A stretch of 64,000 nucleotides of DNA, taken from contig JAQUNI010000001.1 in the NCBI GenBank assembly GCA_028717685.1, positions 54,306 through 118,305 on the forward strand. Direction: 5' to 3'. How positions within the stretch are numbered: position 1 is the first letter of the stretch; each line of letters starts with the position of its first letter. The stretch is from Patescibacteria group bacterium (lineage in GTDB: Bacteria > Patescibacteriota > JAQUNI01). Below, one piece after another: positions 437 to 63,989 of this stretch. A program made the position numbers and the translations under genes. The notes under the pieces were generated by a model. That model was given only the letters and a program-made list of their open reading frames with translations, did not search any database and was not told where the DNA came from.

Positions 437-440
437 AAAG

Positions 441-873
441 ACGAATTACGAAGTACGAATTATAGTTTTAGTAGTTTTAATGAGGCCATTGATCATTTTA
501 CTAAGTTCAATGGTTTGGGTAGCTACAGGGTCAAAATCTTTATTGCTCAAATAGTTTATATCTCTGGCAATTAACAACTGATTTTGAACCTCGGTTAAGG
601 ATCCTAAAGCGCGGCAATAAAACTGCATCTTCTCTTTATAAGAAGGTCTACTAAATCCTTCAGCAATATTAGAAGTGAAAGAAACGGCTGCTCTCCTTAA
701 TTGGCTAGTTAAACCAAAGATTTCTTCTCTGGGAAATTTTTGGGTGACTTTGTAGATCATCAAGACTAATTTGTGTCCTTCTTTCCAAACTCGCAAATCG
801 GTAAAAGATTTAATTTTATTTTGATCCATGAAAATTGTTTATCCGTGATTCGTAATTCGGAATTCGTGATTCG
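441..873 (-). mobile_element. inverted-repeat-bracketed four-helix-bundle cassette (IVS-like), copy 1
   Basis: ORF 446-829 is flanked by inverted gaattac-type heptads. 442-452 cgaattacgaa is the exact reverse complement of 849-859 ttcgtaattcg. The arms extend imperfectly to 441-460 and 844-873, and the left arm overlaps the last codons of the ORF. Confidence 0.5.
446..829 (-). CDS. four-helix-bundle protein (23S rRNA intervening-sequence protein / Avd-like family)
   Basis: 127-aa ORF with the family signature FP.EE.FGLTSQLRRAAVS..SNIAEG and an N-terminal F.DL.VW motif. It is a paralog of ORFs 59104-59463 and 61765-62124. Confidence 0.85.
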   Translation of the reverse strand: MDQNKIKSFTDLRVWKEGHKLVLMIYKVTQKFPREEIFGLTSQLRRAAVSFTSNIAEGFSRPSYKEKMQFYCRALGSLTEVQNQLLIARDINYLSNKDFDPVATQTIELSKMINGLIKTTKTIIRTS

Positions 874-5889: not shown

Positions 5890-5964
5890 CTATTCTCCCT
5901 CCCCCTCCAACTCCCCCTCGGGCAGGGGGAGTGTAATCAAGCTTATCGCTAATAGACGATACAT
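5890..5964. repeat. C-tract/G-tract hairpin repeat, copy A (also at 26135-26209)
   Basis: ctattctccctccccctcc..ctccccctcgggcagggggagtgtaatcaagct is shared almost exactly with 26135-26209. It contains the stem ctccccc/gggggag. Upstream, 5853-5880 also resembles 26048-26075. Confidence 0.8.
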
Positions 5965-11610: not shown

Positions 11611-11739
11611 GTTAAAAGTTAAAAGTGCAAAGTGAAAAGTTGAATTTAAAGTTTAAAGTTTCTTTTGTAAAAGCAGCTGCTCCGCAATAATTTTGTACTT
11701 TAAACCGCAATTTTGAACTTTGAATTTTTAACTTTGAAC
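11611..11739. repeat. heptamer-array hairpin (gttaaaa/gtgaaaa words)
   Basis: Left array 11611-11659 (gttaaaa gttaaaa gtgcaaa gtgaaaa ...). Right array 11697-11739 is its imperfect reverse complement, about 26/32 over the outer part. The loop of about 37 nt contains gcagctgc. Confidence 0.7.
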
Positions 11740-11746
11740 TAATTTT

Positions 11747-14041: not shown

Positions 14042-14142
14042 AAAAATTAAAAATGAAAAGTGAAAAATGTAAAATTAAATTGAAAACAATTTTTTCATTT
14101 TAGATTGTGATTTTTAATTTTTCATTTTATATTTTACGTTTT
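14042..14142. repeat. heptamer-array hairpin (atgaaaa/gtgaaaa/gtaaaat words)
   Basis: An A-rich array (attaaaa atgaaaa gtgaaaa atgtaaa ...) is followed by a T-rich complementary array (ttttcat, attttac ...). The pairing register is ambiguous because of low complexity. Confidence 0.55.
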
Positions 14143-16207: not shown

Positions 16208-16374
16208 CTTGCTATAACTATATCTAAAAAAGCCTTAAAAGTAAACCCCGTTAGAGAATTTTGTCGTCCTTCGGTTCTTTGAGCTGAGCTCAAAATTATA
16301 TCCCTACTGTTCATAAATTAGATTGCTAAAATGTGGAATATTTTCTATAATAAATACGAAGTGACATCAGTAAA

Positions 16375-16405
16375 CCCCATTAGGGAACGAAGCTTTCTAG
16401 CAGGG
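16375..16405. repeat. CCCCGTTAGAGAA-type palindromic element (degenerate)
   Basis: ccccattagggaa cgaag ctttctagcaggg, flanked by gtaaa / gtaaa. A half site gtaaaccccgttagagaa lies at 16241-16258. Confidence 0.5.
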
Positions 16406-18019: not shown

Positions 18020-18064
18020 TTTTTTTACTATTTATCAAAATTTAATAATTTTCCCTGCGAAAAA

Positions 18065-18176
18065 TTTTCAATTTTCAATTTCTAATTTTTATTAAATTTT
18101 TAATCTTAAAATTTTTAAACATTTAAAATTGATTTATTGAAAATTTAATAAAAATTGAAAATTAGAAATTAAAAAT
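18065..18176. repeat. heptamer-array hairpin element, copy 1 (ttttcaa/tttctaa words)
   Basis: A 17-nt perfect inner stem (aatttttattaaatttt, about 18084-18100, against about 18141-18157) sits inside arms of about 36 nt. The element is about 91-93% identical by eye to 19932-20085. Confidence 0.75.
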
Positions 18177-18181
18177 TACTT

Positions 18182-19933: not shown

Positions 19934-20085
19934 ATTTCTAATTTTCAATTTCTAATTTCTATTAAATTTTTAATTTTAAAATTTTCAAACACCATTAGAA
20001 ATGAAAAATTTCTAGACGGGATAAACCTTTTAAAAATTAATTCATTAGAAATTTAATAAAAATTGAAAATTAGAAATTGAAAATT
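19932..20085. repeat. heptamer-array hairpin element, copy 2 (direct repeat of 18065-18176)
   Basis: It has the same arms as copy 1. Its loop carries about 50 extra nt, including a degenerate ttagaaat...atttctag palindrome (19991-20020). Confidence 0.75.
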
Positions 20086-21136
20086 ACTTATAATACACCA
20101 ATCCCTGCACCCTTAAATCAATATAGTATTTAATTTCTTTATTATTTTTCCCAATATCCTCTTTGAAAACTAAGGTTAAAGCTTCAAGTTGGTTTTGCAA
20201 GCTCTGTCTAGTGTCAAAAAATATTTGATAACCTTTGTCCGTTTTTATATACAAGTCGCGGGAATCAGAAATCGGCACAATGAATTCTTGGATTTTCAAA
20301 TCCGTCTTTAGAGATAACAAATCCCGCACTTGAAAAAGGAAACTTAAAAAAGAGGGGTCTAAAATCTGCTCGCGCGGTTCTACTTTTTTAAAAGACTGAT
20401 CATAAAGAACGGGTAATCCCTTTTCCCATACCGTTTCCTCGGGAATTTCCTCGCCGATTATTCCTTCCGCATCTAAAAAGTGATAAAGAATAGTGGGATT
20501 TTCGGGATAGGAGGTTGGAGTCAAGATGGCTTGTGACTCTTTATCTTTAACTTCCCCGATTTCCTCCCTACTCGTAGAATCACTGGCAAAAGCTTCAGGG
20601 GGTAAAAATAAATCCTGCGGCGCGCCATTTGCCCAAATCGCTTTCGGCTCCCTCTCGGTAATGATAATTTTTAAAACATCGGGGAATTCTTTTTTAATGT
20701 CTATTTTCTCAATCTGGGCAAAATGGGCATAGATTACGCTGCTTAAATGCTTTTTACCCGCAATAATCAAATTTTCTTTGGGAAAAATAAAGGCGCGTCC
20801 CTTTAAATTCTCGCGCGCCAAATTTTCCACATCTTCACCCTTGACATTAACATTGCCTACCACTACAATCTCCTTGATTTGCCAGAACGGAAAAAAGAAT
20901 AAAAAATAAACAAGCGAACCTAACGCAAGCAAAAAAAGGAAAAAGGCAATTTTCCGCTGCAAATGTCCCGAAGCCTCGCGGACGCGAAAACGAGGAGTCG
21001 CGAGATAAATCCTCGGGCTCGCTAAGGTCCGCTTTTTCCTAAAAAACCCGCGTTTCCACTCCACTTTCCTTTTGCGGGATTTTTGTTTATACGGGTTTAA
21101 GTATAATTTTTTGCGGCTGGGTTTATGAGAAAACAC
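20084..21136 (-). CDS. FtsQ/DivIB-like cell division protein (POTRA domain)
   Basis: 350 aa with a basic N-tail, a single TM, then the POTRA-like WQIKEIVVVGNVNV...LKIIITEREPKAIW. The ORF-track start is GTG. Confidence 0.65.
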   Translation of the reverse strand: MFSHKPSRKKLYLNPYKQKSRKRKVEWKRGFFRKKRTLASPRIYLATPRFRVREASGHLQRKIAFFLFLLALGSLVYFLFFFPFWQIKEIVVVGNVNVKGEDVENLARENLKGRAFIFPKENLIIAGKKHLSSVIYAHFAQIEKIDIKKEFPDVLKIIITEREPKAIWANGAPQDLFLPPEAFASDSTSREEIGEVKDKESQAILTPTSYPENPTILYHFLDAEGIIGEEIPEETVWEKGLPVLYDQSFKKVEPREQILDPSFLSFLFQVRDLLSLKTDLKIQEFIVPISDSRDLYIKTDKGYQIFFDTRQSLQNQLEALTLVFKEDIGKNNKEIKYYIDLRVQGLVYYK

Positions 21137-22469: not shown

Positions 22470-22485
22470 AAGCTACGGTTTTTTT
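22459..22485 (+). terminator. Rho-independent terminator
   Basis: Stem ccgtag / ctacgg with loop actaaaag containing the stop codon, followed by seven T. Confidence 0.8.
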
Positions 22486-22492
22486 ATTCTAC

Positions 22493-22639
22493 TAGACCCT
22501 TCTCCGCCTCCCGCTTCCCAAGGGGAGAGGAGTTATTATCCCCTCCTTTCCAAGGAGGGGCTAGGGGAGGTTCTGAGTCAGAACCCCACCCATCCTCCCC
22601 TTGGAAAGGGGAGGTGGGGGGAGAAAGGAAGGGGTCTTT
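22493..22639. repeat. C-tract/G-tract nested-hairpin element
   Basis: It is bounded by tagacccttc ... gaaggggtct. Internal stems are cccctcc/ggagggg, ggttctga g tcagaacc (22569-22585) and cctcccc/ggggagg. It abuts the serS stop codon. Confidence 0.7.
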
Positions 22640-26134: not shown

Positions 26135-26209
26135 CTATTCTCCCTCCCCCTCCGCCTCCCCCTCGGGCAGGGGGAGTGTAATCAAGCTCCTCGTTAATAG
26201 ATGACATAT
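26135..26209. repeat. C-tract/G-tract hairpin repeat, copy B (see 5890-5964)
   Basis: About 88% identical by eye to 5890-5964 over 75 nt. It lies in the region upstream of lysS, on the opposite strand relative to the gene. Confidence 0.8.
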
Positions 26210-27766: not shown

Positions 27767-27772
27767 AATATT

Positions 27773-27807
27773 GGTAATCAGTAATTAGTAATTAGTAATT
27801 GGTAATC
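27773..27807. repeat. tandem heptamer array (ggtaatc agtaatt agtaatt agtaatt ggtaatc)
   Basis: Five exact-period heptamers starting 7 nt from the folD start codon. An adjacent core of about 50 nt (27836-27890) resembles 32626-32678. Confidence 0.75.
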
Positions 27808-27897
27808 GGGAGTCCTATAAATTACAAAATTTTTGAAAAGGAGTGAGCAAGAAAATTAGAGACAAATACTTAATTCCTGCTTCCTGATTTGTTCTTC

Positions 27898-31410: not shown

Positions 31411-31414
31411 AAAA

Positions 31415-31519
31415 AAGCGTAAAGTGAAAAGTGTAAAGCGTAAAGTGTAAAAAATAATAACCCAGTATTTTAAGTTGCACGCTGTTCATTTTATGCTTTA
31501 CGCTTTAAGTTTTAAGCTT
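31415..31519. repeat. heptamer-array hairpin (gtaaagc/gtaaagt words)
   Basis: 31433-31452 gtaaagcgtaaagtgtaaaa pairs with 31489-31508 ttttatgctttacgctttaa at 17/20 positions. The loop is 36 nt. It lies between the mreB stop and the mreC start. Confidence 0.7.
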
Positions 31520-32559
31520 TATTTATACTGCGTGTCCACCAACACCTCGCGCAAGAGGTCTAAATTTTCTAAGACCATGCCCGCGCCCCGAACAACACAA
31601 GTCAAGGGATCATTGGCGATCTGGACGGGCATCTGCGTCTCGCGTGCGACAAGACGGTCAAGACCGCGCAGGAGCGCGCCTCCGCCCGCCAAAATAATAC
31701 CCCGATCCATAATATCCGCGACAAGTTCAGGAGGGGTTTCCTCAATCGTTCCTTTAATATTAGAAACTAGATTTCTGATGGAACGCGATAAGGCTTCGCG
31801 CACCTGACTATCATTAATAATCACCTCCTTTGGCAGACCCGTGACGAGGTCCCGACCGCGCAACTTTGCTTCCAAGGGTTTCTTCAAAGGCCAAGCCGAG
31901 CCAATGGCGATTTTAATTTCTTCGGCTTTCCTTTCGCCGATTAATAAATTAAAGTGGTCGCGGGAATATTGAATAACATTCTCGTTTAATTCATCTCCCG
32001 CAATCCGCAACGATCGCGCCACCACGCCCCCGCCCAGAGAAATTACCGCCATCTCGGTTGTGCCGCCGCCGATATCCACAATCATACTTCCCGAAGCATC
32101 TTGCACGGGAAGGCGGGAACCGATGGCCGCGGCCATCGGTTCTTCAATCAAGAAAGCTTGCCTCGCGCCAGCCGTGCGCGTGGCATCCTCCACCGCTCGC
32201 CGCTCCACTTCGGTGCAGCCCGAAGGAATGCCAATCACTACCCTAGGTCGCGGAATAAGAGTGAACATTCCTTGGTGCACCTTCTGAATAAAATATTTTA
32301 ACATCTGCTCGGTCACTTCAAAATCAGAAATCACCCCGTCCACAAGTGGACGAGTGGCTACAATATGCATCGGCGTTCTTCCCACCATCTTTTTCGCTTC
32401 ATTGCCAATTGCCAAAACCTGACCCGTCTTCGTATTCATAGCCACGACCGAAGGCTCATTGATGACGATGCCTTTCCCACGCACATACACTAAGGTATTC
32501 GCTGTCCCTAAATCAATGCCGATGTCGCGGGAAAAAGCGCCTAAAAAACGATTAAACAT
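31519..32559 (-). CDS. mreB: rod shape-determining protein MreB
   Basis: 346 aa. GIDLGTANTLVYV, DIGGGTTE and GGGALLRGLD. Confidence 0.95.
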   Translation of the reverse strand: MFNRFLGAFSRDIGIDLGTANTLVYVRGKGIVINEPSVVAMNTKTGQVLAIGNEAKKMVGRTPMHIVATRPLVDGVISDFEVTEQMLKYFIQKVHQGMFTLIPRPRVVIGIPSGCTEVERRAVEDATRTAGARQAFLIEEPMAAAIGSRLPVQDASGSMIVDIGGGTTEMAVISLGGGVVARSLRIAGDELNENVIQYSRDHFNLLIGERKAEEIKIAIGSAWPLKKPLEAKLRGRDLVTGLPKEVIINDSQVREALSRSIRNLVSNIKGTIEETPPELVADIMDRGIILAGGGALLRGLDRLVARETQMPVQIANDPLTCVVRGAGMVLENLDLLREVLVDTQYK

Positions 32560-32562
32560 AAT

Positions 32563-32696
32563 TTGGAATTAGGAATAGAGAATAATGAATAAGGAATAAG
32601 GAATTCTGAAAGTTACGCAATTCCTAAAAAAGGAGTAAGCAGAAATCTAAGGCAAACGCTTAACTCCTGCTTCCTAATTCCTGATTCCTGATTCCC
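32563..32696. repeat. heptamer-array hairpin (ggaatta/ggaataa versus attcctg/attccta)
   Basis: 32587-32605 gaataaggaataaggaatt pairs with 32676-32694 at 17/19 positions. The central core of about 50 nt (32626-32678) is about 80% similar to 27836-27890. Confidence 0.65.
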
Positions 32697-32699
32697 AAC

Positions 32700-34187: not shown

Positions 34188-34212
34188 ATGGATGCAAAAA
34201 ACTTGTAGTGAA

Positions 34213-34243
34213 CCCCATTAGAGAATGAAGTTCTCTAACGGGG
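34213..34243. repeat. CCCCGTTAGAGAA-type palindromic element
   Basis: ccccattagagaa tgaag ttctctaacgggg has one mismatch in 13 bp and is flanked by gtgaa / gtaaa. Confidence 0.75.
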
Positions 34244-34258
34244 TAAATTTATTGAATA

Positions 34259-35480: not shown

Positions 35481-36056
35481 TTAATGAGGCATGATTTCCT
35501 TTTCTTTCTTCTCGCTCATCATTTCTAATTTCAGGGTATATTCCTTGGTCTTCTGATCCAATTCCTCTAAACCACGAAACTTTTCATCCTCGGACATAGC
35601 TCCTTGTTTGGTCGCTTCTTGAACCTCTTCCCTGACCTTGTCACGCCAATGCCGCAAAGCAATCCGACTCTGCTCCAGTTTTTCCCTCAAAACCTTGATG
35701 AGCTGCTCCCTCCTCTCCTCCGTAAGATCAGGGAGTTTAATCCGAATAGCGTCCCCTTCTATGCTCGGATTTAAACCTAAGGGGGAACTCGCAATAGCCT
35801 TTTCCACATCCTTAATCACATTTTGATCCCAAGGTCTCACCACTAATATATTCGGTTCCGGAGCGGAAATGCTGCCTAGCTCTCGAATCTGCATCCGCGA
35901 GCCGTAAACCTCTACGACTAAATTTTCCACCAGAGAAGGATTTGCCCTGCCCGTCCGTATCCCCGCCAATTCTTCACCAAAATGCTTTAATGCCGCATCA
36001 AACTCGGGAGCGTATTTTTTAAAAATTGACTCAAACATATAGTAAGTAAACCCCAT
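35481..36056 (-). CDS. frr: ribosome recycling factor
   Basis: 191 aa with IRTGRANPSLVENL. The start may be Met7. Confidence 0.95.
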   Translation of the reverse strand: MGFTYYMFESIFKKYAPEFDAALKHFGEELAGIRTGRANPSLVENLVVEVYGSRMQIRELGSISAPEPNILVVRPWDQNVIKDVEKAIASSPLGLNPSIEGDAIRIKLPDLTEERREQLIKVLREKLEQSRIALRHWRDKVREEVQEATKQGAMSEDEKFRGLEELDQKTKEYTLKLEMMSEKKEKEIMPH

Positions 36057-36165
36057 TAGAGAACTTCTTTTCTCTAACCCCGTTTGGAAATATGTTTCTA
36101 ACGGGGTCAGCGTCTATATTTTTCCCACCACCGACTTTGTCGGCGGCTTTCTCTAACGGGGTAAA
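36046..36165. repeat. cluster of CCCCGTTAGAGAA-type palindromic elements
   Basis: gtaaaccccattagagaa..ttctctaacccc, ccccgtttggaaatatgtttctaacgggg, and a terminal ctttctctaacggggtaaa. That makes three partial or complete copies in 120 nt. Confidence 0.7.
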
Positions 36166-39234: not shown

Positions 39235-40245
39235 TTAAGTTTTACTAGACAGAATACTGTGCTTGTAGAGTTCCAAATTCTCTAGGGCTATGCCCGTGCC
39301 GCGAACCACGCAGAGAAGGGGATCTTCGGCAACATAAGAAGGCACGCCGATTGCTTTGCTCACGAGTTTATCCATATTGCGTAAAAGGGCGCTTCCACCG
39401 GATAAAACCATCCCCCGATCAATCACGTCCGCGGAAAGCTCGGGCGGTGTTTTTTGAAGCACGGATTTAATCACGTTGATAATCTCTCGCAAAGGATCTT
39501 GAATCGCTTCGGTCACTTCATTAGAGGTGATTTCAATGCTGCGCGGCAATCCCCCGACAATGTCGCGACCGCGAATCTCCGTCTTTTTATTTTCCGAAAG
39601 AGGCAAAGCGCTTCCGAGCTTGATTTTTACCGCTTCCGCCGTGGCGTCGCCAATCGCTAAATTATGCTTCGCACGCACATAATCTGTAATCGCTTGATCA
39701 AATTTATTGCCAGCCACGCGCGCAGAATTGGAGGTTACCACCCCTCCCAAAGAAATAATCCCCACCTCGGTCGTCCCGCCGCCGATGTCAATAATCATAT
39801 TCCCCACGGATTGACCGATTGGAATCCCCGCTCCAATTGCCGCCGCCACAGGTTGCTTGATTAAATAAACCGCTTTGGCGCCCGCGTTCATCGTAGCGTC
39901 CACCACCGCTCTCCTCTCTGTGGAAGTAATCCCCACAGGCACAGAGACCATCACTTCCGGACGAAATAACCTGACCCCGCCAGTCGCTTTGTTAATAAAA
40001 TAACGCAGCATCGTTTCGGTAATCCGATAATCCGCAATCACCCCGTCGCGCATTGGCTGGGAAGCTTTGATGTTTTCGTGGGTGCGGCCAAGCATTTGCT
40101 TCGCTTCCAACCCCACCGCTAAAATTTTATTGTCATCTAAAGAAACCGCCACTACTGTCGGTTCGTTAATCACCATTCCCCTCTTCGGCACGCAGACTAG
40201 GGTATTCGCGGTGCCGAGATCAATACCAATGCGTTTTGTGAACAT
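39235..40245 (-). CDS. mreB: MreB-family actin homolog, second paralog
   Basis: 336 aa. GIDLGTANTLVCV and DIGGGTTE. It is clearly homologous to 31519-32559. Confidence 0.9.
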   Translation of the reverse strand: MFTKRIGIDLGTANTLVCVPKRGMVINEPTVVAVSLDDNKILAVGLEAKQMLGRTHENIKASQPMRDGVIADYRITETMLRYFINKATGGVRLFRPEVMVSVPVGITSTERRAVVDATMNAGAKAVYLIKQPVAAAIGAGIPIGQSVGNMIIDIGGGTTEVGIISLGGVVTSNSARVAGNKFDQAITDYVRAKHNLAIGDATAEAVKIKLGSALPLSENKKTEIRGRDIVGGLPRSIEITSNEVTEAIQDPLREIINVIKSVLQKTPPELSADVIDRGMVLSGGSALLRNMDKLVSKAIGVPSYVAEDPLLCVVRGTGIALENLELYKHSILSSKT

Positions 40246-46994: not shown

Positions 46995-46999
46995 AAATT

Positions 47000-47097
47000 C
47001 GGAATTAGGAATAGGGAATTATGAATCATGAATCAGAAATTAGGAAGCGAGGAAAAAAGCTGTTCATCTTTATTCCTGATTCCTGATTCCCACTTCC
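47000..47097. repeat. heptamer-array hairpin in the rpsK/rpsD spacer (ggaatta/gaatcat versus attcctg)
   Basis: The left purine-rich array and right array ctttattcctgattcctgattccc are imperfectly complementary, about 16/20. The core gaaaaaagctgttcatctttattcct is shared with 47598-47635. Confidence 0.65.
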
Positions 47098-47102
47098 TTT
47101 AG

Positions 47103-47565: not shown

Positions 47566-47642
47566 TTGGAATTAGGAATTGTGAATCAGGAATTAGGAAA
47601 GAAGAAAAAAGGCTATTCATCTTTATTCCTTATTCAGATTTT
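47566..47642. repeat. heptamer-array hairpin in the rpsM/rpsK spacer
   Basis: ggaatta ggaattg tgaatca ggaatta ggaaag lies opposite ctttattccttattcag. The conserved core is as in 47051-47080. Confidence 0.6.
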
Positions 47643-50686: not shown

Positions 50687-50736
50687 AATAATAAACTCAA
50701 AGCTCAAATGTCAAAACTCAAAACTACAGGTCAAAA
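50687..50736. repeat. tandem heptamer array (aaactca aagctca aatgtca aaactca aaactac aggtcaa)
   Basis: Period-7 array filling the spacer between ORF 50737-51096 and ORF 48932-50686. Confidence 0.65.
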
Positions 50737-51096
50737 CTAAAAATTTTTCTTTTTATATTTTTTTAAAAGTTGATTTAATATTTTCAATAAAGGTTTTCGC
50801 CAATCATCTTCTAACTGAGATTTGATGAGTTGCACTAATATCTTATCTCCTGAAGTCAGATGCAATTTTTCCAACTTTTTACATTGAGCTAAAATTTCAA
50901 AATCAATATCGGTGGCTAAAACATATTTGCTTTTCTCTAATGGGGTTAACTGAAACTGCTTTGTCAATCTCTGTTTTCTTCTTTGAAGTAATTCCTGATA
51001 ATGCCTATCTTCTTTTAAAACTTTTCTTAATTTATATCCCTGATATCCTAGATTCAGATAAAAATCTTCAATCGCTTGCATTGATTTCTCTTGCAT
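50737..51096 (-). CDS. hypothetical helical protein
   Basis: 119 aa, predicted all-alpha by composition. It is bracketed by heptamer arrays (50687-50736 and 51097-51118). No family motif recognised. Confidence 0.55.
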   Translation of the reverse strand: MQEKSMQAIEDFYLNLGYQGYKLRKVLKEDRHYQELLQRRKQRLTKQFQLTPLEKSKYVLATDIDFEILAQCKKLEKLHLTSGDKILVQLIKSQLEDDWRKPLLKILNQLLKKYKKKNF

Positions 51097-51118
51097 AACT
51101 TTTAACTTTTAACTTATC
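51097..51118. repeat. tandem heptamer array (aactttt aactttt aacttat)
   Basis: It fills the 22-nt spacer between the ftsA stop and the ORF 50737-51096 start. Confidence 0.65.
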
Positions 51119-57312: not shown

Positions 57313-59061
57313 ATGAAGGACAAATTAAAAAACGATACAGTCAATTCCAACGGGGTGAAATTTGACGACAAAACAATAAAGAAGATTCTCTTAAAAGGGA
57401 ACTATATTACTGAAGAAGATGTTAAGAACGCGGATGATTTTGCCACAACGCACCAAGTGTCATTCATAGGGTATCTGCTCCAAGAAAATCTCATCACCAA
57501 GGACCTCTTGGGGCAGGCGATTGCCGAATCGTTCAAGGTTCCCTACGCTGACTTAAATTCAGCACCACCCGCACCTCTGCAGGTGCAAAAAATTCCGGAG
57601 GAGACCGCGAAAAAATATCACGCGGTTATTTTCGCTGAAGAAAAAAACAAAACCGTAGTCGCCACCGATAATCCAGAAGATCCAACACTCCTGCCGGAAT
57701 TAGAAAAGCTGTTTGTCGGCAGGAGGTTGAGCATTGTCTATTCGCTGACCGAGGACATCAACGCGAGCTTTGTGCATTATCAAAAGCCGCTTGAAACCCG
57801 CTTCTCTAAGATTATTGAGAGCAAAGGGCGAGTCGCGCCAGAGCTTTTGGAAGAAATTTTTGATGACGCGCTCGTATATCATGCCTCCGACATCCATTTT
57901 GAACCCAGGCAGAAAGATGTGCTTGTGCGGTTTCGCATTGACGGCGTTTTACAAGAAACCGGCAGGATCCCCAAAGAATATTACGAAAATATTCTTAATC
58001 GCATCAAGGTGCAAAGCGGTTTGCGCATTGATGAACACTTTGCCGCGCAAGACGGTTCGCTCCGGTATGAACCCTCCTCCTTTAAAGCTTCCTCCTACGC
58101 TAACGCTCCAGCGGGCAAAAAGGATAGCGTTGTTGTTGACCTTAGAACCTCAGTTGTCCCCACTGTTGAAGGAGAAAAAGTGGCATTGCGCGTACTCTCG
58201 GCATATGTGCAAGGATTTTCTCTTGGTGATCTTGGTCTTTCGCCGGCACATCAGCAGATACTTGAGCAAGCCGCCACAAAACCATTTGGCATGATTCTCG
58301 TAGCAGGTCCCACTGGTTCCGGAAAAACCACTACGCTTTACGCACTTTTGAAACTTGTAAATAGCCCAGAGGTGAACATCACCACTATTGAGGACCCGGT
58401 GGAGTACAGGGTGCTCGGCGTGAATCAAATTCAAATCAATCCTCTAACAAATCTCACTTTTGCCAAAGGACTGCGTTCTATCGTCCGCCAAGACCCGGAT
58501 ATTATTCTGGTCGGCGAGATTCGCGACGAAGAAACAGCAGAAATCGCCGTAAATGCGGCACTCACCGGCCATCTTCTCTACTCCACATTTCACGCCAACG
58601 ATGCCGCTACCGCCATTCCTCGGCTTCTGGATATGGGCATTGAACCGTTTCTTTTGGCTTCCACGCTTGAGGTTATTGTCGCCCAGCGACTCGTGCGTAA
58701 AATTTGCGAACATTGCCGGCATAGTGTTACCAAATCGGCAAATGATTGGAAGACGCCTCAGCTTCGGTCAGTTATGCCATATCTTTCCAAAAAGTCGATC
58801 ACGCTCTATGAAGGGAAGAAGTGCGAGATGTGCGGCTATACGGGGTACAAAGGACGAACTGCTATTTTTGAATTCATCCAAATCACTCCGGAGATGCGGA
58901 ATCTCATCTTACACTCCCCGTCAACTAAAGAAATCTGGCAACTCGCCAGTAAGGATGGTTCAAAAACACTTTTTGAAGACGGCATTGAAAAAGTTAAGAC
59001 TGGAGTAACCACAATAGAAGAGCTGCTTCGCGTCGCCGAACCGCCGCAGAAGAGTGGGTAG
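57313..59061 (+). CDS. pilB: type IV pilus assembly ATPase (GspE/PilB family)
   Basis: 582 aa. Walker A GPTGSGKTT, Walker B DPDIILVGEIRD, His box TGHLLYSTFH, and a tetracysteine CEHC...CEMC. Confidence 0.9.
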   Translation: MKDKLKNDTVNSNGVKFDDKTIKKILLKGNYITEEDVKNADDFATTHQVSFIGYLLQENLITKDLLGQAIAESFKVPYADLNSAPPAPLQVQKIPEETAKKYHAVIFAEEKNKTVVATDNPEDPTLLPELEKLFVGRRLSIVYSLTEDINASFVHYQKPLETRFSKIIESKGRVAPELLEEIFDDALVYHASDIHFEPRQKDVLVRFRIDGVLQETGRIPKEYYENILNRIKVQSGLRIDEHFAAQDGSLRYEPSSFKASSYANAPAGKKDSVVVDLRTSVVPTVEGEKVALRVLSAYVQGFSLGDLGLSPAHQQILEQAATKPFGMILVAGPTGSGKTTTLYALLKLVNSPEVNITTIEDPVEYRVLGVNQIQINPLTNLTFAKGLRSIVRQDPDIILVGEIRDEETAEIAVNAALTGHLLYSTFHANDAATAIPRLLDMGIEPFLLASTLEVIVAQRLVRKICEHCRHSVTKSANDWKTPQLRSVMPYLSKKSITLYEGKKCEMCGYTGYKGRTAIFEFIQITPEMRNLILHSPSTKEIWQLASKDGSKTLFEDGIEKVKTGVTTIEELLRVAEPPQKSG

Positions 59062-59498
59062 TAGGATTAGTTGGTAGTTTGTAGTGAGTAGTTAGTAGTA
59101 AATATGAAAATTGAATCGTACGAAAATTTAATTGTGTGGCAAAAGTCAATGGATCTGGTGATTGCTGTTTATGCATTGACAGAAAAATTTCCAAAAGAAG
59201 AACTATACGGTTTAACTTCACAAATGCGCCGCGCAACTGTTTCAGTTCCTTCCAATATTGCGGAAGGTAGTAGGCGTGGTTCTCGAAAAAATTTTAGAAA
59301 TTTTTTACTCAATGCGTATGGTTCCAGTGCAGAGCTTGGGACTCAGATCAAAATCGCGAAACGGCTTTCATACGGAAAAACCAAAAATTATGAGCAAGCG
59401 GATGCACTGCTTGATGAAGTAATGCGCATGTTAGACAAATTGACGTATGGGCTCAAAGAATAAAAGTCTACAAACTACCAACTACAAACTACAAACTA
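59059..59498 (+). mobile_element. hairpin-loop four-helix-bundle cassette (IVS-like), copy 2
   Basis: 59068-59084 tagttggtagtttgtag is the exact reverse complement of 59468-59484 ctacaaactaccaacta (17 bp). ORF 59104-59463 fills the loop. Confidence 0.65.
59104..59463 (+). CDS. four-helix-bundle protein (23S rRNA intervening-sequence protein / Avd-like family)
   Basis: 119 aa. YENLIVWQKSMDL, FPKEELYGLTSQMRRATVSVPSNIAEG. It differs from ORF 61765-62124 at 10 of 119 residues. Confidence 0.9.
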   Translation: MKIESYENLIVWQKSMDLVIAVYALTEKFPKEELYGLTSQMRRATVSVPSNIAEGSRRGSRKNFRNFLLNAYGSSAELGTQIKIAKRLSYGKTKNYEQADALLDEVMRMLDKLTYGLKE

Positions 59499-60886
59499 TC
59501 TTCCTAGGCAAAGAACGGGACTATTTTATTGAGAATTTAAGCATGCTGGTCGCCGCTGGCATGCCGATTTTGGGCGTTCTCGACTCCATTGCCAAAGAAC
59601 TGCGCTCGCGCCGCATGAAAAAAATTCTTGCTCTTATTCGGGAATATATTGAATCTGGCTCGCCAATTTGGAAAGCGCTTCAAACAACTAACCTGTTTGC
59701 CGACCACACTATCTCGCTTATCCGCCTTGGCGAAGAATCGGGAAAGCTTACGGAGAACTTAAAAGTGGTCGCGAATGAACAAGAAAAAAATCGGGTGTTC
59801 CACTCCAAGCTTCGTTCCGCCATAATGTATCCTGTATTCGTACTCTCACTCACGGTCATTATCGGTGTGGGCATTGCGTGGTTTATTTTGCCCAAGCTGG
59901 CGCTGGTGTTTGCCCAGCTTAAAATAACCTTGCCCCTTATCACAAAAATTTTGATCGGATCGGGAACATTTCTTGGCGAATATGGCCAATACGTCGTGCC
60001 CGCGGCAGTTATAGCAATATCAGTTATTTTTTTCTTTATTTTCTCATTTCCAAAAACAAAATTTATCGGGCAATTTATTTTATTTTCTTTGCCCGGCGTT
60101 AAACAACTTATTAAGGAAGTGGAGCTGGCGCGGCTCGGTTATCTTTTAGGCACGCTTCTTGACGCTGGACTGCCGGTAACCCAAGCGCTCAACTCGCTCG
60201 CAAGCGCTACCGAGATTGCGCCATACAAAAAACTCTACAAACACCTGCGCGACTCGGTAGAAGACGGCAATCCGTTCCGGAAAAGCTTTATTTCCTTTAA
60301 GCGCACTAATCATCTTATTCCCGAACCTATTCAGCAACTCATCGTCGCTGGTGAACAGTCAGGCACTCTTTCAGCAACTCTTCTTAAAATCGGAGAGACT
60401 TATGAAGCTAAAGCGGACACGACGACAAAAAATTTGACCGTGATTCTGGAGCCGATATTACTCGTCATCGTGTGGCTCGGCGTTGTAGCCGTGGCGTTAG
60501 CAGTGATTTTGCCAATCTACAGCCTTATCGGCGGATTTAACGCCAACCAGCCCGCAGCGGCACAGCCTCCTCCTGCCGAAGAACAGGTAATCAGTCCGCC
60601 GCCAAGTGTGGAAACAACAGCTCCAGATACAGAAACCGTGGAAGTAATACCCCCTCCGGATACAGAAATCATAGAGAAAAAACCAACAACGCTCCGCGTT
60701 CTTCCCACTAGCGTAGGGTATCTTAACGTGCGCGAGAAACCATCATTAACAAGTAAAATCGTCACGCGCGTTAAGCCGGGTGAAACATTTGAATACACTG
60801 AAAAAAACGAGAGCTGGTATAAAATTATTTTGCCGGATGGCAATTCCGGATGGGTGTTTGAAAAATATGTTGAAGAAAATGAATAA
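59447..60886 (+). CDS. pilC: type IV pilus platform protein (GspF/PilC family) with C-terminal Pro-rich linker and SH3b-like domain
   Basis: 479 aa. Two T2SSF-type repeats (FIENLSMLVAAGMPILGVL and LGYLLGTLLDAGLPVTQAL) and three TM helices. The C-terminal YLNVREKPS...SWYKIILPDGNSGWVFEKYV is SH3_3-like. The ATG lies 17 nt inside the preceding ORF. Confidence 0.85.
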   Translation: MGSKNKSLQTTNYKLQTIFLGKERDYFIENLSMLVAAGMPILGVLDSIAKELRSRRMKKILALIREYIESGSPIWKALQTTNLFADHTISLIRLGEESGKLTENLKVVANEQEKNRVFHSKLRSAIMYPVFVLSLTVIIGVGIAWFILPKLALVFAQLKITLPLITKILIGSGTFLGEYGQYVVPAAVIAISVIFFFIFSFPKTKFIGQFILFSLPGVKQLIKEVELARLGYLLGTLLDAGLPVTQALNSLASATEIAPYKKLYKHLRDSVEDGNPFRKSFISFKRTNHLIPEPIQQLIVAGEQSGTLSATLLKIGETYEAKADTTTKNLTVILEPILLVIVWLGVVAVALAVILPIYSLIGGFNANQPAAAQPPPAEEQVISPPPSVETTAPDTETVEVIPPPDTEIIEKKPTTLRVLPTSVGYLNVREKPSLTSKIVTRVKPGETFEYTEKNESWYKIILPDGNSGWVFEKYVEENE

Positions 60887-60892
60887 ACAAAA

Positions 60893-60998
60893 CTAACAAA
60901 TGACACATAACATCTGACACATGACATTTGACACATATGAAACAAAAAAAATTATAGGAAAATAAAAGGGCATCGTCAGATGTTAGGTATCAGATGTT
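60893..60998. repeat. heptamer-array hairpin (ctgacac/atgacat words)
   Basis: The left array is ctaacaa atgacac ataacat ctgacac atgacat ttgacac. 60909-60932 pairs with 60975-60998 at about 19/24 positions. Confidence 0.65.
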
Positions 60999-61013
60999 CC
61001 AAAAGGGTTTACC

Positions 61014-61309
61014 CAGCACCACTTTTTAGATTATAAACATGTATTACGTCTATACCTTAATTAGTAAGTTAAAAAATAAGACAGAAATATATATTGGATC
61101 AACAAATGATCTGAGAAGAAGACTAAGAGATCATAATAATGGTAAAGAAAGATCTACAAAACGTTATAGGACGTGGAATCTGATTTACTACGAAGCATAT
61201 ATAACAGAGAGTCTAGCAAGATTAAGAGAAAAACGATTGAAACATCACGGAAATGCGATGAAAGAATTAAAAAAAAGAATCGGATTATCCGAATGGAAAA
61301 GTGGTGCTG
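61014..61309 (+). mobile_element. GIY-YIG nuclease-carrying element with 13-bp terminal inverted repeats and 8-9-bp flanking direct repeat
   Basis: 61014-61026 cagcaccactttt is the exact reverse complement of 61297-61309 aaaagtggtgctg. ggtttacc lies immediately outside both ends (61006-61013 and 61310-61317). Confidence 0.6.
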
Positions 61310-61731
61310 GGTTTACCTTGCTGGAAGTTCTTCTCTCTATCGCGGCGATCGCGATTATCGCCGTAATTTCTATTCCCATTTATCAGTCGTTTCAGGTGCG
61401 AAACGATCTTGATATCGCGACCATGGAAATTGCCCAAACTTTGCGGCGCGCGCAAGTACTTTCCCAAGCGGTTGATGGCGACACAAGCTGGGGCGTTTCT
61501 CTCGCAAGCGGAAATATCACGCTTTTTAAGGGCGTAAGTTACGCCACCCGCGATACCAATTTTGATGAAGTGTTTGATGTATCAACAAATATCACTCCAT
61601 CGGGACCTTCCGAAATCGTGTTTGTAAAATTTACAGGCTTACCACAGACCACGGGGACAATAATGCTATCCTCCAATATGAATGAAACGAGAAATATAGT
61701 AATTAACCAGAAGGGAATGGTTAATTATTAG
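61039..61731 (+). CDS. GIY-YIG nuclease domain fused in frame to a type IV pseudopilin (GspH/FimT-like)
   Basis: 230 aa with no internal stop. Residues 1-85 read YYVYTL..IYIGSTNDLRRRLRDHNNG..YYEAY..REKRLK (GIY-YIG). Then comes KSGAG|FTLLEVLLSIAAIAIIAV (class III signal with E5). An internal Met74 lies at 61258. Confidence 0.8.
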   Translation: MYYVYTLISKLKNKTEIYIGSTNDLRRRLRDHNNGKERSTKRYRTWNLIYYEAYITESLARLREKRLKHHGNAMKELKKRIGLSEWKSGAGFTLLEVLLSIAAIAIIAVISIPIYQSFQVRNDLDIATMEIAQTLRRAQVLSQAVDGDTSWGVSLASGNITLFKGVSYATRDTNFDEVFDVSTNITPSGPSEIVFVKFTGLPQTTGTIMLSSNMNETRNIVINQKGMVNY

Positions 61732-62158
61732 TTGGTAGTTTGTAGTGGGTAGTTGGTAGTAAATATGAAAATTGAATCATACGAAAATTTAATTGTGTGG
61801 CAAAAGTCAATGGATTTAGTGATTGCTGTTTATGCATTGACAGGAAAATTTCCAAAAGCAGAACTATACGGTTTAACTTCACAAATGCGCCGCGCGGCTG
61901 TTTCAATTCCTTCCAATATCGCGGAGGGGAGCAGGCGCGGTTCTCGGAAGGATTTTAGAAATTTTTTACTCAATGCGTATGGTTCTGGTGCAGAGCTTGA
62001 AACTCAAGTTAAAATTGCGAAACGACTTTCATACGGAAAAACCAAAGATTATGAGCAGGCGGACGCGCTGCTCGATGAAGTAATGCGCATGTTAAACAAA
62101 TTGACGTATGGGCTCAAAGAATAAAAATCTACCCACTACAAACTACAAACTACCCACT
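61729..62158 (+). mobile_element. hairpin-loop four-helix-bundle cassette (IVS-like), copy 3
   Basis: 61735-61752 gtagtttgtagtgggtag is the exact reverse complement of 62129-62146 ctacccactacaaactac (18 bp). ORF 61765-62124 fills the loop. Confidence 0.65.
61765..62124 (+). CDS. four-helix-bundle protein (23S rRNA intervening-sequence protein / Avd-like family)
   Basis: The start is taken at the ATG homologous to 59104 (MKIESYENL). The ORF track begins at a TTG (61753) inside the hairpin arm. Confidence 0.9.
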   Translation: MKIESYENLIVWQKSMDLVIAVYALTGKFPKAELYGLTSQMRRAAVSIPSNIAEGSRRGSRKDFRNFLLNAYGSGAELETQVKIAKRLSYGKTKDYEQADALLDEVMRMLNKLTYGLKE

Positions 62159-62746
62159 CAACAAGGCTTCAGCCTTGTTGAAGTTATTCTCGCCAGCGCG
62201 GTGTTTGTTTTGTTCGTTACCGCGCTTGTCGGAGCGTACCTCTATGGGCAGGAGTCAACCGCGCTTGCCGGCAATCGCGCGCGCGCGACGATTCTTGCCG
62301 AAGAAGGGCTTGAGGCAGTGCGCAATATCCGCGATGCCGGATTTTCTAATCTCACCGACGGCACCTACGGATTGGCTGTTGTCGGCAACCAATGGGCGTT
62401 ATTCGGAACATCAGACACAACGGGTATTTTTACCCGCCAAATTACAATTTCCGCTGTAGATTCAGAACGAAAAAGCGTGACTGCGAATGTCGCTTGGCAA
62501 CAAAATGCCCAGCGCCCGGGAGCAGTTGCCCTGACGACCTATCTTACTAACTGGAAAAAGGCGACTCCTGTCAATTCCTGCGATATTTACTGCCAGTTGT
62601 TGGGAACCTATACCACTGGTACCTGTCGGGAAAATTCCCAACAATGTACTAAGTATGACGAGATTTATGAGGCGGGCGGTGATCCTATTTGTGTGACTAG
62701 TTTTCCTGGCGACGCCAGCCATGATACTTGTTGCTGCAAACCATAA
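62108..62746 (+). CDS. type IV pseudopilin with cysteine-rich C-terminal domain
   Basis: MGSKNKNLPTTNYKLPTQQG|FSLVEVILASAVFVLFV is a class III signal with E5. There are 8 Cys in the last 57 residues. The ATG lies 17 nt inside the preceding ORF. Confidence 0.75.
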   Translation: MGSKNKNLPTTNYKLPTQQGFSLVEVILASAVFVLFVTALVGAYLYGQESTALAGNRARATILAEEGLEAVRNIRDAGFSNLTDGTYGLAVVGNQWALFGTSDTTGIFTRQITISAVDSERKSVTANVAWQQNAQRPGAVALTTYLTNWKKATPVNSCDIYCQLLGTYTTGTCRENSQQCTKYDEIYEAGGDPICVTSFPGDASHDTCCCKP

Positions 62747-62755
62747 TTTAGGGAT

Positions 62756-62814
62756 TAGTTTGTAGTGAGTAGTTGGTAGGTTGTAGTTTTCTACTCACTA
62801 CTCACTACAAACTA
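62756..62814. repeat. unoccupied heptamer hairpin between pseudopilin genes
   Basis: 62756-62772 tagtttgtagtgagtag is the exact reverse complement of 62798-62814 ctactcactacaaacta (17 bp). The 25-nt loop contains a small gtag tttt ctac stem. Confidence 0.8.
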
Positions 62815-62823
62815 CAAACTAAC

Positions 62824-63348
62824 ATGCTACCAACTACAAACTACCAACTACAAACCCAGCGTGGCTTCACGCTAATTGAACTGCTTCTCTATGTTGCCGT
62901 TGCGTCGGCGATACTTTTGGCGATTTCGGTTTTTCTTTCAATCCTCCTTCAGTCGCGCATCAAAAATCAAACTATCGCTGAAGTGGAACAGCAGGGGCTT
63001 CAAGTTATGCAACTCGTTACGCAAACCGCGCGCAACGCCGAGGCAATCACCTCGCCAGCGCAGGGCGCAAGCGCTTCATCTTTGACGCTTGACGTTATTT
63101 CTGCTGCCAGTGACCCCACTATTTTTGATCTCGCAAGCGGCGCGATTCGCGTCAAAGAAGGGGCTGGTTCAGCTACCGCTCTTACTAATTCTCGCGTTAC
63201 CGCTTCCGCTCTCACATTCCAAAATCTCTCTCGCACCGACACTCCGGGCACGGTTCGCGTCCAATTCACCCTCGCACATACAAATCCAGAAGGCAGAAAT
63301 GAATACTCATTTACTAAAACATTTATCGGCTCTGCGAGCCTGCGCTAG
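62824..63348 (+). CDS. type IV pseudopilin (GspJ/PulJ-like)
   Basis: The start is taken at the ATG giving MLPTTNYQLQTQRG|FTLIELLLYVAVASAILL. The ORF track begins at a TTG (62773) inside the hairpin. Confidence 0.75.
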   Translation: MLPTTNYQLQTQRGFTLIELLLYVAVASAILLAISVFLSILLQSRIKNQTIAEVEQQGLQVMQLVTQTARNAEAITSPAQGASASSLTLDVISAASDPTIFDLASGAIRVKEGAGSATALTNSRVTASALTFQNLSRTDTPGTVRVQFTLAHTNPEGRNEYSFTKTFIGSASLR

Positions 63349-63370
63349 TCATAATGCGGCAAATGCCGCA

Positions 63371-63477
63371 ACGACTGACACTTGATACCTAGCACCTGAC
63401 AACTGACCACTAACATCTAACATTTTGTTAGGTGTCAGATGCCAAATGTCAGGTGTTAGGTGCTAGGTGTCAAGTGT
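63371..63477. repeat. long heptamer-array hairpin (ctgacac ttgatac ctagcac ctgacaa ctgacca ctaacat)
   Basis: The outer stem 63376-63395 acacttgatacctagcacct pairs with 63458-63477 aggtgctaggtgtcaagtgt at 19/20. The inner arms are imperfect, with loop tttt near 63423-63426. Confidence 0.75.
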
Positions 63478-63507
63478 TAATTGTATAGAACCAGGTTATT
63501 CACACTC

Positions 63508-63927
63508 ATGATTATTTTAAAATATAAAAAGTGTTATAATAAACAGGAGGATGGGTTCATTACCCTAATAAGTGTCTTGGTGGTTGGAGCGGTTGGAATA
63601 GCCCTCACAATTTCCGTGATTTTGCTCGGGCTTGGGTCGTCGCGAACAAGTTTTACGAATGAGCAGTCAAACCAAGCGAAAGCCCTCACTAACGCCTGTG
63701 CCGAAGAAGCTCTTCAGCAAATTCGTGATTCTGTGAATTTTGAAGGTACCGGTAGCCTTACTTTAGGTCTGGGCAGCTGCACCTATACCGTGACCAAACT
63801 TGTTAGCCAGAACCGAACCGTCACCGCCAGCGGGACAGTGGGAACAATCATAAGAAAAGCAAGTATTGCTCTTGATACAATCAGACCGAGCATCAACATC
63901 ACTTCCTGGCAAGAGGTGGCTGATTAG
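63508..63927 (+). CDS. PilX/minor-pilin-like protein
   Basis: The start is taken at the first ATG, giving MIILKYKKCYNKQEDG|FITLISVLVVGAVGIALTISVILLG. It has a hydrophobic N-terminal helix but no Glu at +5. The ORF track begins at TTG 63481. Confidence 0.55.
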   Translation: MIILKYKKCYNKQEDGFITLISVLVVGAVGIALTISVILLGLGSSRTSFTNEQSNQAKALTNACAEEALQQIRDSVNFEGTGSLTLGLGSCTYTVTKLVSQNRTVTASGTVGTIIRKASIALDTIRPSINITSWQEVAD

Positions 63928-63989
63928 TTAGTAGTTTGTAGTGAGTAGTGAATAAAAAACTACCAACTAACACGCTACCAACTACAAGC
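63925..63989. repeat. heptamer arrays of the pilus-locus family at the window end
   Basis: tagttagtagtttgtagtgagtagtg is followed by actaccaactaacacgctaccaactacaagc. The words match 59059-62857 but complementarity is degenerate. The next gene lies beyond the window. Confidence 0.5.

Follow-up and report, generated by a model that had tools for sequence, protein, structure and literature searches.

To our knowledge, the proteins of family PF05635 have been assigned no function in the more than 30 years since their discovery in intervening sequences (IVSs) of ribosomal RNA (rRNA). In the IVSs of Leptospira and Coxiella, the open reading frame (ORF) for this protein ('S23p') is looped out by a stem that the ends of the element form. 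In the 23S IVS of Coxiella burnetii, three tandem copies of GACAGAT stand just before the PF05635 ATG, their number varies among strains, and RNase III makes its 5' cut at the first of these heptamers (PMC4990558). Insertions in the rRNA of the Candidate Phyla Radiation (CPR) carry PF05635 ORFs as well (10.1101/2024.02.27.582315). Here we describe three PF05635 ORFs in 64,000 nt of DNA from a Patescibacteria group bacterium (NCBI GenBank assembly GCA_028717685.1, contig JAQUNI010000001.1, positions 54,306 to 118,305; hereafter the window), two of them in a type IV pilus operon and one between dnaX and a tRNA gene. Each ORF lies between two complementary arrays of 7-nt repeats (arms), and each such unit is probably a selfish cassette of the rRNA-IVS type that has no promoter and is adapted to operon junctions, with ORF-less hairpins as its decay products. 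The ORFs and their arms are as follows, in window coordinates:

59062..59099, plus strand: cassette 1 5' arm, an array of TAGTTGG/TAGTTTG/TAGTGAG/TAGTTAG with TAG in three frames (period 7 by Tandem Repeats Finder, TRF, at 59061-59099; inverted repeat; stop-frame count)
59104..59463, plus strand: cassette 1 ORF, a 119-aa PF05635/TIGR02436 four-helix-bundle protein (profile search, structure model)
59468..59498, plus strand: cassette 1 3' arm, (CTACAAA/CTACCAA)n, stop-free in all frames and translated as the PilC N-terminus
61729..61760, plus strand: cassette 2 5' arm, TAGTTGG TAGTTTG TAGTGGG TAGTTGG (inverted repeats, TRF period 7)
61765..62124, plus strand: cassette 2 ORF, a 119-aa PF05635 protein with 92% identity to that of cassette 1
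62129..62158, plus strand: cassette 2 3' arm, CTACCCA CTACAAA CTACAAA CTACCCA, translated as the leader peptide of pseudopilin pp3
842..873, minus strand: cassette 3 5' arm, CGAATCA/CGAATTC/CGAATTA, right after the dnaX stop codon at 874-876 (TRF 844-873)
446..829, minus strand: cassette 3 ORF, a 127-aa PF05635 protein with 42% identity to that of cassette 1
440..461, minus strand: cassette 3 3' arm (AATTCGTACTTCGTAATTCGTC, TTCGTAA-type), overlapping the ORF stop codon and 4 nt from tRNA-Gln (364-436)

The two ORFs of the pilus operon differ at 10/119 residues and 31/360 nt. In cassette 1, 59068-59084 matches the reverse complement of 59468-59484 without a mismatch (17 bp), and in cassette 2 the same holds for 61735-61752 and 62129-62146 (18 bp); each ORF is 4 nt away from each array, with spacers aaat/aagt in cassette 1 and aaat/aaat in cassette 2. 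An earlier reading of the window from the sequence alone had given these ORFs, perfect arms and spacers, and all of them hold. With imperfect positions counted, the arms extend to 31 nt in cassette 1 (87% complementary) and to 24 nt in cassette 2 (96%). Folding, which that reading had proposed as a check, makes arm-arm pairing the closing stem of the minimum free energy (MFE) RNA structure in both cassettes, with z-scores of -5.7 (cassette 1) and -6.4 (cassette 2) and 0/100 shuffled sequences equally stable. Words of the CTACAAACTAC type occur 20 times where 0.5 are expected, every one of them in 59074-63985, i.e., within the pilus operon, to which the CTACAAA-type unit is restricted in the window. 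The co-variation between arms that had also been read stands in part: the unit pairs match in cassette 2 (GTGGGTAG/CTACCCAC) and in an ORF-less hairpin at 62756-62814 (GTGAGTAG/CTACTCAC), and for the GTGAGTAG at 59085-59092 in cassette 1 there is no matching CTACTCAC. Stronger support for arms beyond chance comes from the third ORF, whose heptamers are unrelated to those of the pilus-operon cassettes, and from complementary period-7 flanks throughout the family (see below). The closing stem of cassette 3 has 10+6 bp in the MFE structure, and all PF05635 ORFs of the window (3/3) are bracketed by heptamer arms.

That this is the same stem-plus-ORF module as in the rRNA IVSs, as had been suggested, is borne out by the heptamers of the Coxiella IVS and the RNase III cut at repeat 1 (PMC4990558): the protein family is the same, the ORF is looped by a stem of the element ends, tandem heptamers stand directly 5' of the ATG, and ORF-less and ORF-degraded versions exist. 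What sets the window units apart from rRNA IVSs is their host, a protein-coding operon and a dnaX/tRNA junction instead of rRNA (Rfam and ARAGORN over the window gave the tRNA-Gln alone), and the double use of their arms as a stop signal and as coding sequence of a neighboring gene. Excision by RNase III does no harm in rRNA; at these junctions it would inactivate the cistron that follows. The unit has IVS anatomy without the rRNA location, and it behaves like a MITE (miniature inverted-repeat transposable element) that carries a cargo gene and has no known transposase.

To see how general the arms are, we examined 80 loci from species-representative genomes (CPR, Acidobacteriota, Planctomycetota, Clostridia, Bacteroidota, Desulfobacterota and others), comparing 72 PF05635 genes with 201 other genes of the same loci. 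The maximum period-7 autocorrelation of the two flanks is 0.67/0.71 for PF05635 genes and 0.45/0.47 for the other genes, and among periods 4 to 11 period 7 alone is raised in PF05635 flanks. Both flanks are strongly periodic in 20/72 PF05635 genes as compared to 2/201 neighbors, and the duplex energy between flanks, minus that of a reversed control, is -13.0 kcal/mol for PF05635 genes and -0.8 kcal/mol for the others (Mann-Whitney p 1e-7 to 1e-19 for the flank comparisons). The heptamer itself varies by locus (GTCAGTA, CTAGGGA, ACAGTGG, GATCAGG, TTAGTGG, TCGTATG), and the type of arm tracks the protein subfamily. Most of the PF05635 genes (53/66) are co-directional with both neighbors, with gaps of about 50 nt. 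The family is large, with at least 7950 homologs of E <= 1e-10 among 8000 candidates scored. Plasmid-borne PF05635 genes are almost confined to cyanobacteria, where they lie between cas6 and cas4 or other genes and have arms (TCAGGAG/CTCCTGA, GTAGGGA/TCCCTAC) like the short tandemly repeated repetitive (STRR) sequences.

These comparisons bear on whether small ORFs came to lie by chance between two of the many heptamer hairpins of this genome. Such hairpins are abundant: TRF reports 44 period-7 rows in the window vs 1.7 in resampled sequence, and the rows merge to 43 arrays, of which 33 are intergenic (the window is 86% coding), so that the arrays share the hallmarks of STRR sequences (tandem 7-nt units, mostly intergenic, at many loci), and many ORF-less hairpins stand next to ordinary genes. 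Chance would nonetheless have to bracket all three PF05635 ORFs of the window, repeat the bracket across the family in other phyla and match the type of arm to the protein subfamily, which makes coincidence very improbable; the flank comparison of 72 and 201 genes has already largely refuted it.

We then looked at the pilus operon in relatives. Scanning metagenomes with PilC returned 33 related loci, of which about 30 extend far enough to cover operon junctions. Hairpin-free, ORF-less, 5'-truncated and full states are all found at the three junctions of pilB-pilC-pp2-pp3 (pp, pseudopilin):

pilB/pilC, hairpin-free: L095, L100, L101, L105, L112 and L118, in which pilC has its own ATG and native N-terminus
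pilB/pilC, ORF-less heptamer hairpin: L096/L097 and L001, with an ATG in the loop
pilB/pilC, truncated ORF: L098/L099, 5'-truncated, with arms and tail ATG kept
pilB/pilC, full ORF: the window
pilC/pp2, hairpin-free: most loci
pilC/pp2, ORF-less heptamer hairpin: L096 and L099
pilC/pp2, full ORF: L118
pilC/pp2, other: the window, with a GIY-YIG gene
pp2/pp3, hairpin-free with overlapping genes (the ancestral state): seven loci
pp2/pp3, ORF-less heptamer hairpin: L099, L118 and L103
pp2/pp3, full ORF: the window and L001

These states are scattered patchily over the PilC tree. The truncated copy of L098 retains the tail ATG that pilC needs. In L118, an ORF-less hairpin matches the full cassette 400 nt upstream in its 5' arm, in the initial 10 nt of the ORF and in 32 identical nt at the 3' end, and the hairpin is therefore an internal-deletion derivative of a full cassette. 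Comparison of filled and empty junctions further shows that the cassette abuts the stop codon of the upstream gene and takes the place of the old leader or N-terminus of the downstream one. Occupied, empty and degraded states at orthologous junctions support mobility, which the sequence-only reading had named as a possibility. Its further proposal, that the module colonised intergenic hairpins, is not borne out as worded: the ancestral junctions are hairpin-free (the pp2 and pp3 genes overlap there, and pilC starts at an ATG of its own), the arms accompany the ORF when it enters unrelated operons, and ORF-less hairpins resemble products of deletion. The divergent third copy, the family-wide arms, the full set of junction states and the donation of stop and start codons described below are new with respect to that reading.

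At least three other genomes carry close homologs (74–79% identity) in their pilus operons, one of them in two copies. The 79%-identical homolog, in the Parcubacteria locus L001, occupies the pp2/pp3 junction with the same type of arm and a tail ATG that opens the downstream prepilin gene. The same type of arm also surrounds homologs between a dCache sensor gene and a histidine kinase or binding-protein gene, between the ATPase and permease genes of an ABC transporter, and after a methyltransferase gene, from which we conclude that the arms travel with the ORF. Recurrence in pilus operons, together with the purifying selection described below, could also point to a protein devoted to the type IV pilus system, as an accessory or as a regulator. 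Such a role is unlikely, and we would give it little weight, because the ORF is missing from 30 of the 33 loci that the PilC scan gave and, of the other three, two retain a truncated remnant and no more. The position in the operon also varies (pilB/pilC, pilC/pp2, pp2/pp3), the same subfamily with its arms is found in sensor-kinase, ABC-transporter and other operons, and the family as a whole adjoins genes of every sort across many phyla.

How the cassettes fit into the pilus operon can be followed from its features:

57313..59061, plus strand: pilB, T2SSE ATPase (Pfam T2SSE, E 3e-114)
59447..59449, plus strand: tail ATG within the last codons of the cassette 1 ORF, in another frame; start of pilC (MGSKNKSLQTTNYKLQTIFLGKERDYF...)
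59447..60886, plus strand: pilC, with two T2SSF domains and a C-terminal SH3 domain (Pfam)
60896..61003, plus strand: ORF-less heptamer hairpin (TGACACA.. / ..TCAGATG) at the pilC/pp2 junction
61039..61731, plus strand: GIY-YIG domain in frame with pseudopilin pp2 (profile search)
62108..62110, plus strand: tail ATG in the cassette 2 ORF tail, in another frame, opening pseudopilin pp3 (MGSKNKNLPTTNYKLPTQQ|GFSLVEV)
62108..62746, plus strand: pseudopilin pp3, N_methyl motif (Pfam)
62756..62855, plus strand: ORF-less hairpin of the same heptamer family as cassettes 1 and 2 (arms 62756-62786 and 62791-62822, 4-nt loop)
63921..63985, plus strand: ORF-less hairpin of the pilus-operon heptamer family at the window end

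The stop codon of pilB (TAG, 59059-59061) is the TAG of a 5'-array heptamer of cassette 1, and that of pp2 (TAG, 61729-61731) belongs to the first heptamer of cassette 2. On the other side, neither pilC nor pp3 has an in-frame start past the 3' array, and the tail ATGs at 59447 and 62108 are the sole usable starts. From these the 3' array is translated, into the prepilin leader of pp3 or into the N-terminal tail of PilC, whose T2SSF domain starts at residue 27 (ORF 59447-60886). Past the hairpin at 62756, an ATG at 62825 and a second CTACCAA/CTACAAA array encode the leader of pseudopilin pp4 (MLPTTNYQLQTQR|GFTLIE). This donation of stop and start codons is directly visible in the sequences of the window, L001, L093, L098 and L118. 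For annotation it means that genes downstream of such junctions begin inside the cassette ORF and have element-derived N-termini. As 7 equals 1 modulo 3, three TAG-bearing units place a stop in every frame, (CTACAAA)n stays open in every frame, and one unit gained or lost moves the frame by one. We also considered, as a rule for the whole family, that 5' arrays always stop all frames and 3' arrays never do; it is valid for the CPR subfamily only.

We propose that a cassette consists of a PF05635 ORF between two complementary heptamer arrays, placed in sense orientation between co-transcribed genes, with transcription supplied by the host operon. The subfamily of the pilus operon would be built for survival in operons: the upstream gene would end in the first unit of the 5' array, whose TAG heptamers stop all frames within three units, the ORF tail would supply an out-of-frame ATG, and the stop-free 3' array would be read as the new N-terminus of the downstream gene. 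Such an N-terminus would be harmless because it forms a prepilin leader (removed by the prepilin peptidase), a signal anchor or the N-terminal tail of PilC, and an in-frame junction would be easily reached since gain or loss of a unit moves the frame by one. Translation is probably passed on by coupling, from the upstream gene to the ORF and on to the tail ATG. Internal deletion would turn cassettes into ORF-less heptamer hairpins, local spread probably proceeds by recombination between like arrays, and selection keeps the protein, which would then serve the element.

In this scheme the arms would pair to a stem of 24–31 bp, the structure that RNase III cuts in the Coxiella IVS. The same stem could instead belong to a module of benefit to the host, in which RNase III cuts the polycistronic mRNA and so gives pilB, pilC and the pseudopilins differing stabilities or expression levels, with the ORF as a passenger or as a regulator of cleavage. 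The stems have the size of RNase III substrates, the homologous stem of Coxiella is cut at the first heptamer (PMC4990558), and mRNA hairpins of the Neisseria NEMIS elements are RNase III targets (PMC2229807). Nor are the stems intrinsic terminators, since they have no U-tract: no terminator-like call was made at the cassette arms, and coding sequence follows the 3' arms. We nevertheless hold a host-beneficial processing module to be rather unlikely. The sole start codon of pilC or pp3 is in the loop and the 3' arm forms the first codons of the gene, so that a cut in the stem would decapitate the downstream gene and leave it startless, and most orthologous operons do without any hairpin. No RNase III gene lies within the window. 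Mismatches in the stems are as often G:U (15) as A:C (15), a comparison aimed at selection at the RNA level vs the DNA level and informative for excluding a strong RNA bias alone; with no excess of G:U, the stems bear no mark of selection that acts on pairing of the sense RNA in particular, and pairing may be relevant in the DNA or be maintained by recombination between arms. Within the selfish-cassette interpretation, RNase III may still cleave the window stems, in which case cleavage would be either rare, or a cost, or used for down-regulation.

The proteins themselves are clear members of the family, as the sequence-only reading had supposed from a motif. PF05635 matches the ORFs of cassettes 1 and 2 with E 8e-39 and 4e-40 (132.6 and 136.7 bits vs a cut-off of 33.8), and TIGR02436 matches all three window ORFs with 122–130 bits (cut-off 24). 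The family motif GxxRxxxSxxxNxxEG (as quoted in PMC3936711) appears in the pilus-operon ORFs as GLTSQMRRATVSVPSNIAEG, and Q40, R43, S47, S50, N51, E54 and G55 are invariant across the homolog alignment. An AlphaFold2 model has four helices (confidence, pLDDT, 91) arranged as an up-and-down four-helix bundle; the protein was modeled as a monomer, and PDB entries 2GSC, 2RLD and 4DWL each list chains A–E. Top PDB matches by Foldseek are Xcc0516 (2GSC; TM-score 0.86, also matched by sequence with E 7.5e-26) and BT_0352 (2RLD; TM-score 0.76), followed by Avd, the accessory protein of diversity-generating retroelements (DGRs).

The pilus-operon ORFs are under purifying selection: dN/dS (the ratio of nonsynonymous to synonymous substitution rates) is 0.11 for cassette 1 vs cassette 2 and 0.11–0.12 over three comparisons, with 0.06 in a fourth comparison, in which dS is saturated. 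The window ORFs differ in this from the Coxiella ORF, which is said to decay. Purifying selection implies that the protein is made and matters to something, probably to the element. No link of the PF05635 ORFs to a defence system emerged from PADLOC.

Homology to Avd raises the question of a DGR. The fold is a homologous four-helix bundle, and there is weak similarity to the bacterial Avd (bAvd) and DGR Avd models and structures. The scores stay below the cut-offs, with 27–32 bits for the Avd equivalog NF033474 (cut-off 80) and 28–31 bits for PF22296 bAvd (cut-off 40). A Pfam scan of about 48 window ORFs returned housekeeping genes and no reverse transcriptase, and the repeats listed for 58900-63100 include no pair resembling the template and variable regions of a DGR. 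An Avd accessory function is thus barely credible here; a DGR role is excluded for the window, as had been said from the sequence.

Several observations speak against a selfish mobile cassette, or narrow it. The whole-region fold of cassette 3, with its modest stem, has a z-score of -0.7, no better than shuffles, and the balance of G:U and A:C mismatches given above gives no sign of RNA-level selection on the stems. No target-site duplication is recognizable between filled and empty junctions, no transposase or integrase is seen in the window or the inspected loci, and part of the patchiness could reflect exchange of alleles between strains. Shine-Dalgarno sequences are absent before the cassette ORFs although present at other window genes, and the Coxiella ORF was argued by its authors not to be expressed (PMC4990558). 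Finally, the operon wiring is not general: TAG in all frames of the 5' arm is found in 10/22 loci and a stop-free 3' arm in 11/22, and the tail ATG is restricted to the CPR subfamily.

Other described repeats share parts of this anatomy. Integron cassettes likewise combine a promoter-less ORF with an inverted-repeat site that is imperfect, are inserted in the sense orientation and rely on host transcription for expression; the window units differ from them in having repeats on both sides of the ORF and neither an integrase nor attC/attI architecture. MITEs (Correia/NEMIS, ERIC, YPAL, RPE) have terminal inverted repeats, long stems in mRNA and filled and empty orthologous sites, as here; co-transcribed MITEs are known to be cut by RNase III, the NEMIS stems among them, and to form in-frame fusions with host genes, parts of signal peptides included (PMC2229807). 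They are about 100–200 bp long and gene-less, without tandem-heptamer termini, whereas the window cassettes carry a gene and heptamers, and they have target-site duplications and partner transposases, neither of which was seen for the window cassettes. The heptanucleotide repeats of cyanobacteria such as Nostoc (STRR), Xanthomonas (GGGAATC) and Beggiatoaceae (TAACTGA) are tandem 7-nt units, intergenic and within co-transcribed operons, often convergent pairs capable of forming stem-loops, as here (PMC4692102, PMC2408588, PMC4679880). The papers on these repeats make no tie to PF05635 and propose different functions (G-quadruplexes, regulation), and on plasmids of Nostoc and Anabaena PF05635 genes are flanked by STRR-like arrays.

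One may tentatively go further, to a possibility that we put forward with more doubt than assent: a PF05635 gene with complementary heptamer arrays might be one very large, unrecognized class of mobile cassettes across bacteria, of which the rRNA IVSs would be the special case noticed first. Intergenic heptamers that have had no explanation (STRR, the GGGAATC pairs of Xanthomonas, the hairpins of this CPR genome) would then be ORF-less, MITE-like remains, and the protein a trans-acting factor that maintains, copies or protects the hairpins; its relative Avd binds RNA and reverse transcriptase. If so, the nature of the IVSs, the over-representation of heptanucleotides in intergenic DNA and the role of non-DGR relatives of Avd would be linked, and a selfish insert would be made harmless in an operon by an all-frame stop, a start codon and a frame-adjustable, stop-free linker in a disposable leader. 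The sequence-only reading knew of no such arrangement in mRNA operons. PF05635 genes inside cas operons had in fact been noted (PMC3936711), although without the hairpin and heptamer anatomy; a limited literature search found no statement of a general association of PF05635 with heptamers, and an earlier description is possible.

In the set of L131 (Anabaena sp. 90 pANA02), L133 (Nostoc edaphicum pNe_5) and L130, heptamer-armed PF05635 genes lie between cas6 and cas4 and also, in opposite orientation, between the two ribonucleotide-reductase subunit genes and between toxin-secretion genes. In four CPR loci (L017, L024, L026 and L027), the gene right after the 3' arm begins with MQF(K/Q/V)VPQ.., a recurrent type of neighbor.

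From ATG 61039, the GIY-YIG nuclease ORF at the pilC/pp2 junction has no stop of its own and reads in frame into pp2 as a 230-aa ORF (61039-61731). The GIY-YIG gene sits between 35-nt inverted repeat arms (60992-61026/61297-61331) with a 16-bp perfect core (ACCCAGCACCACTTTT / AAAAGTGGTGCTGGGT), and the last part of the prepilin leader (KSGAG|FTLLEV) is encoded by the 3' arm. The pp2 cleavage motif G|FTLLEV is at about 61309-61330, and the in-frame start candidates are ATG 61039, which gives the fusion protein, and ATG 61258 (MKELKKRIGLSEWKSGAG|FTLLEV). The latter could supply a normal pp2 leader; otherwise the prepilin peptidase would have to remove the nuclease domain from the pilin. A 9-nt direct repeat, GGGTTTACC, occurs at 61005-61013 and 61309-61317. 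Deletion of the GIY-YIG region between its copies was considered as a way to restore a leader MFQKGFTLLEV and was rejected, as ATG 60994 and GFT are offset in frame by one base. In a related locus (L108:3516-4113), a GIY-YIG ORF follows pp2, between direct copies of a structured element of about 95 nt (TTGTCATTTCGA...TATAGATCT), and the contig ends before pp3. The pilB/pilC junctions of two further loci (L102:4824-4990 and L109:3782-3950) have other long, non-heptamer palindromes (e.g. CTACAGGGACCTCTGCAAAAATCTCTC...GAGACTTTTGCAGAGGTCCCTACAG); different sorts of hairpin element are attracted to these junctions.

Two candidates for further PF05635 copies in the window were discarded. A tblastn match at 39907-40083 is weak (E 0.02) and lies inside a long ORF (39235-40245). 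The ORF at 50737-51096 (minus strand, 119 aa) is not PF05635 and has no Pfam match; it is flanked by period-7 arrays (AAACTCA at 50693-50743, TAACTTT at 51096-51115), and it may be another type of cargo.

The window as a whole contains dozens of ORF-less heptamer hairpins that neighbor ordinary housekeeping genes and whose units differ from place to place, e.g. at 11604-11740, 14042-14142, 18063-18178, 19932-20086, 31414-31521, 32560-32695 and 63349-63480, the last with about 50 bp of almost perfect stem (-78.7 kcal/mol). One dispersed family of such hairpins (GGAATCA/GGAATTA vs TGATTCC/TAATTCC) is found at 27767-27897, 32560-32699 and 46995-47100, with further sites at 2399-2450 and 47568-47599. 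Its copies at 27767-27897 and 32560-32699 have a loop sequence in common (..AGGAAGCAGGAGTTAAG..CTCCTTTT..), which suggests copy-and-paste spread of empty hairpins; the copy at 46995 is without most of the loop.

Other repeats of the window include a palindrome resembling repetitive extragenic palindromic (REP) sequences, ACCCCRTTAGAGAA, in 10 copies where 0.7 are expected, often as intergenic inverted pairs (3875-3917, 16245-16387, 34212-34244, 36050-36162, 50933-50946). The intergenic region 22470-22639 has C-rich and G-rich runs (CCCTCC/GGGGAGG) that fold into an extremely stable structure, with -94.7 kcal/mol over 194 nt, and CCCTCC hexamer repeats are also found at 5897-5919 and 26142-26164.

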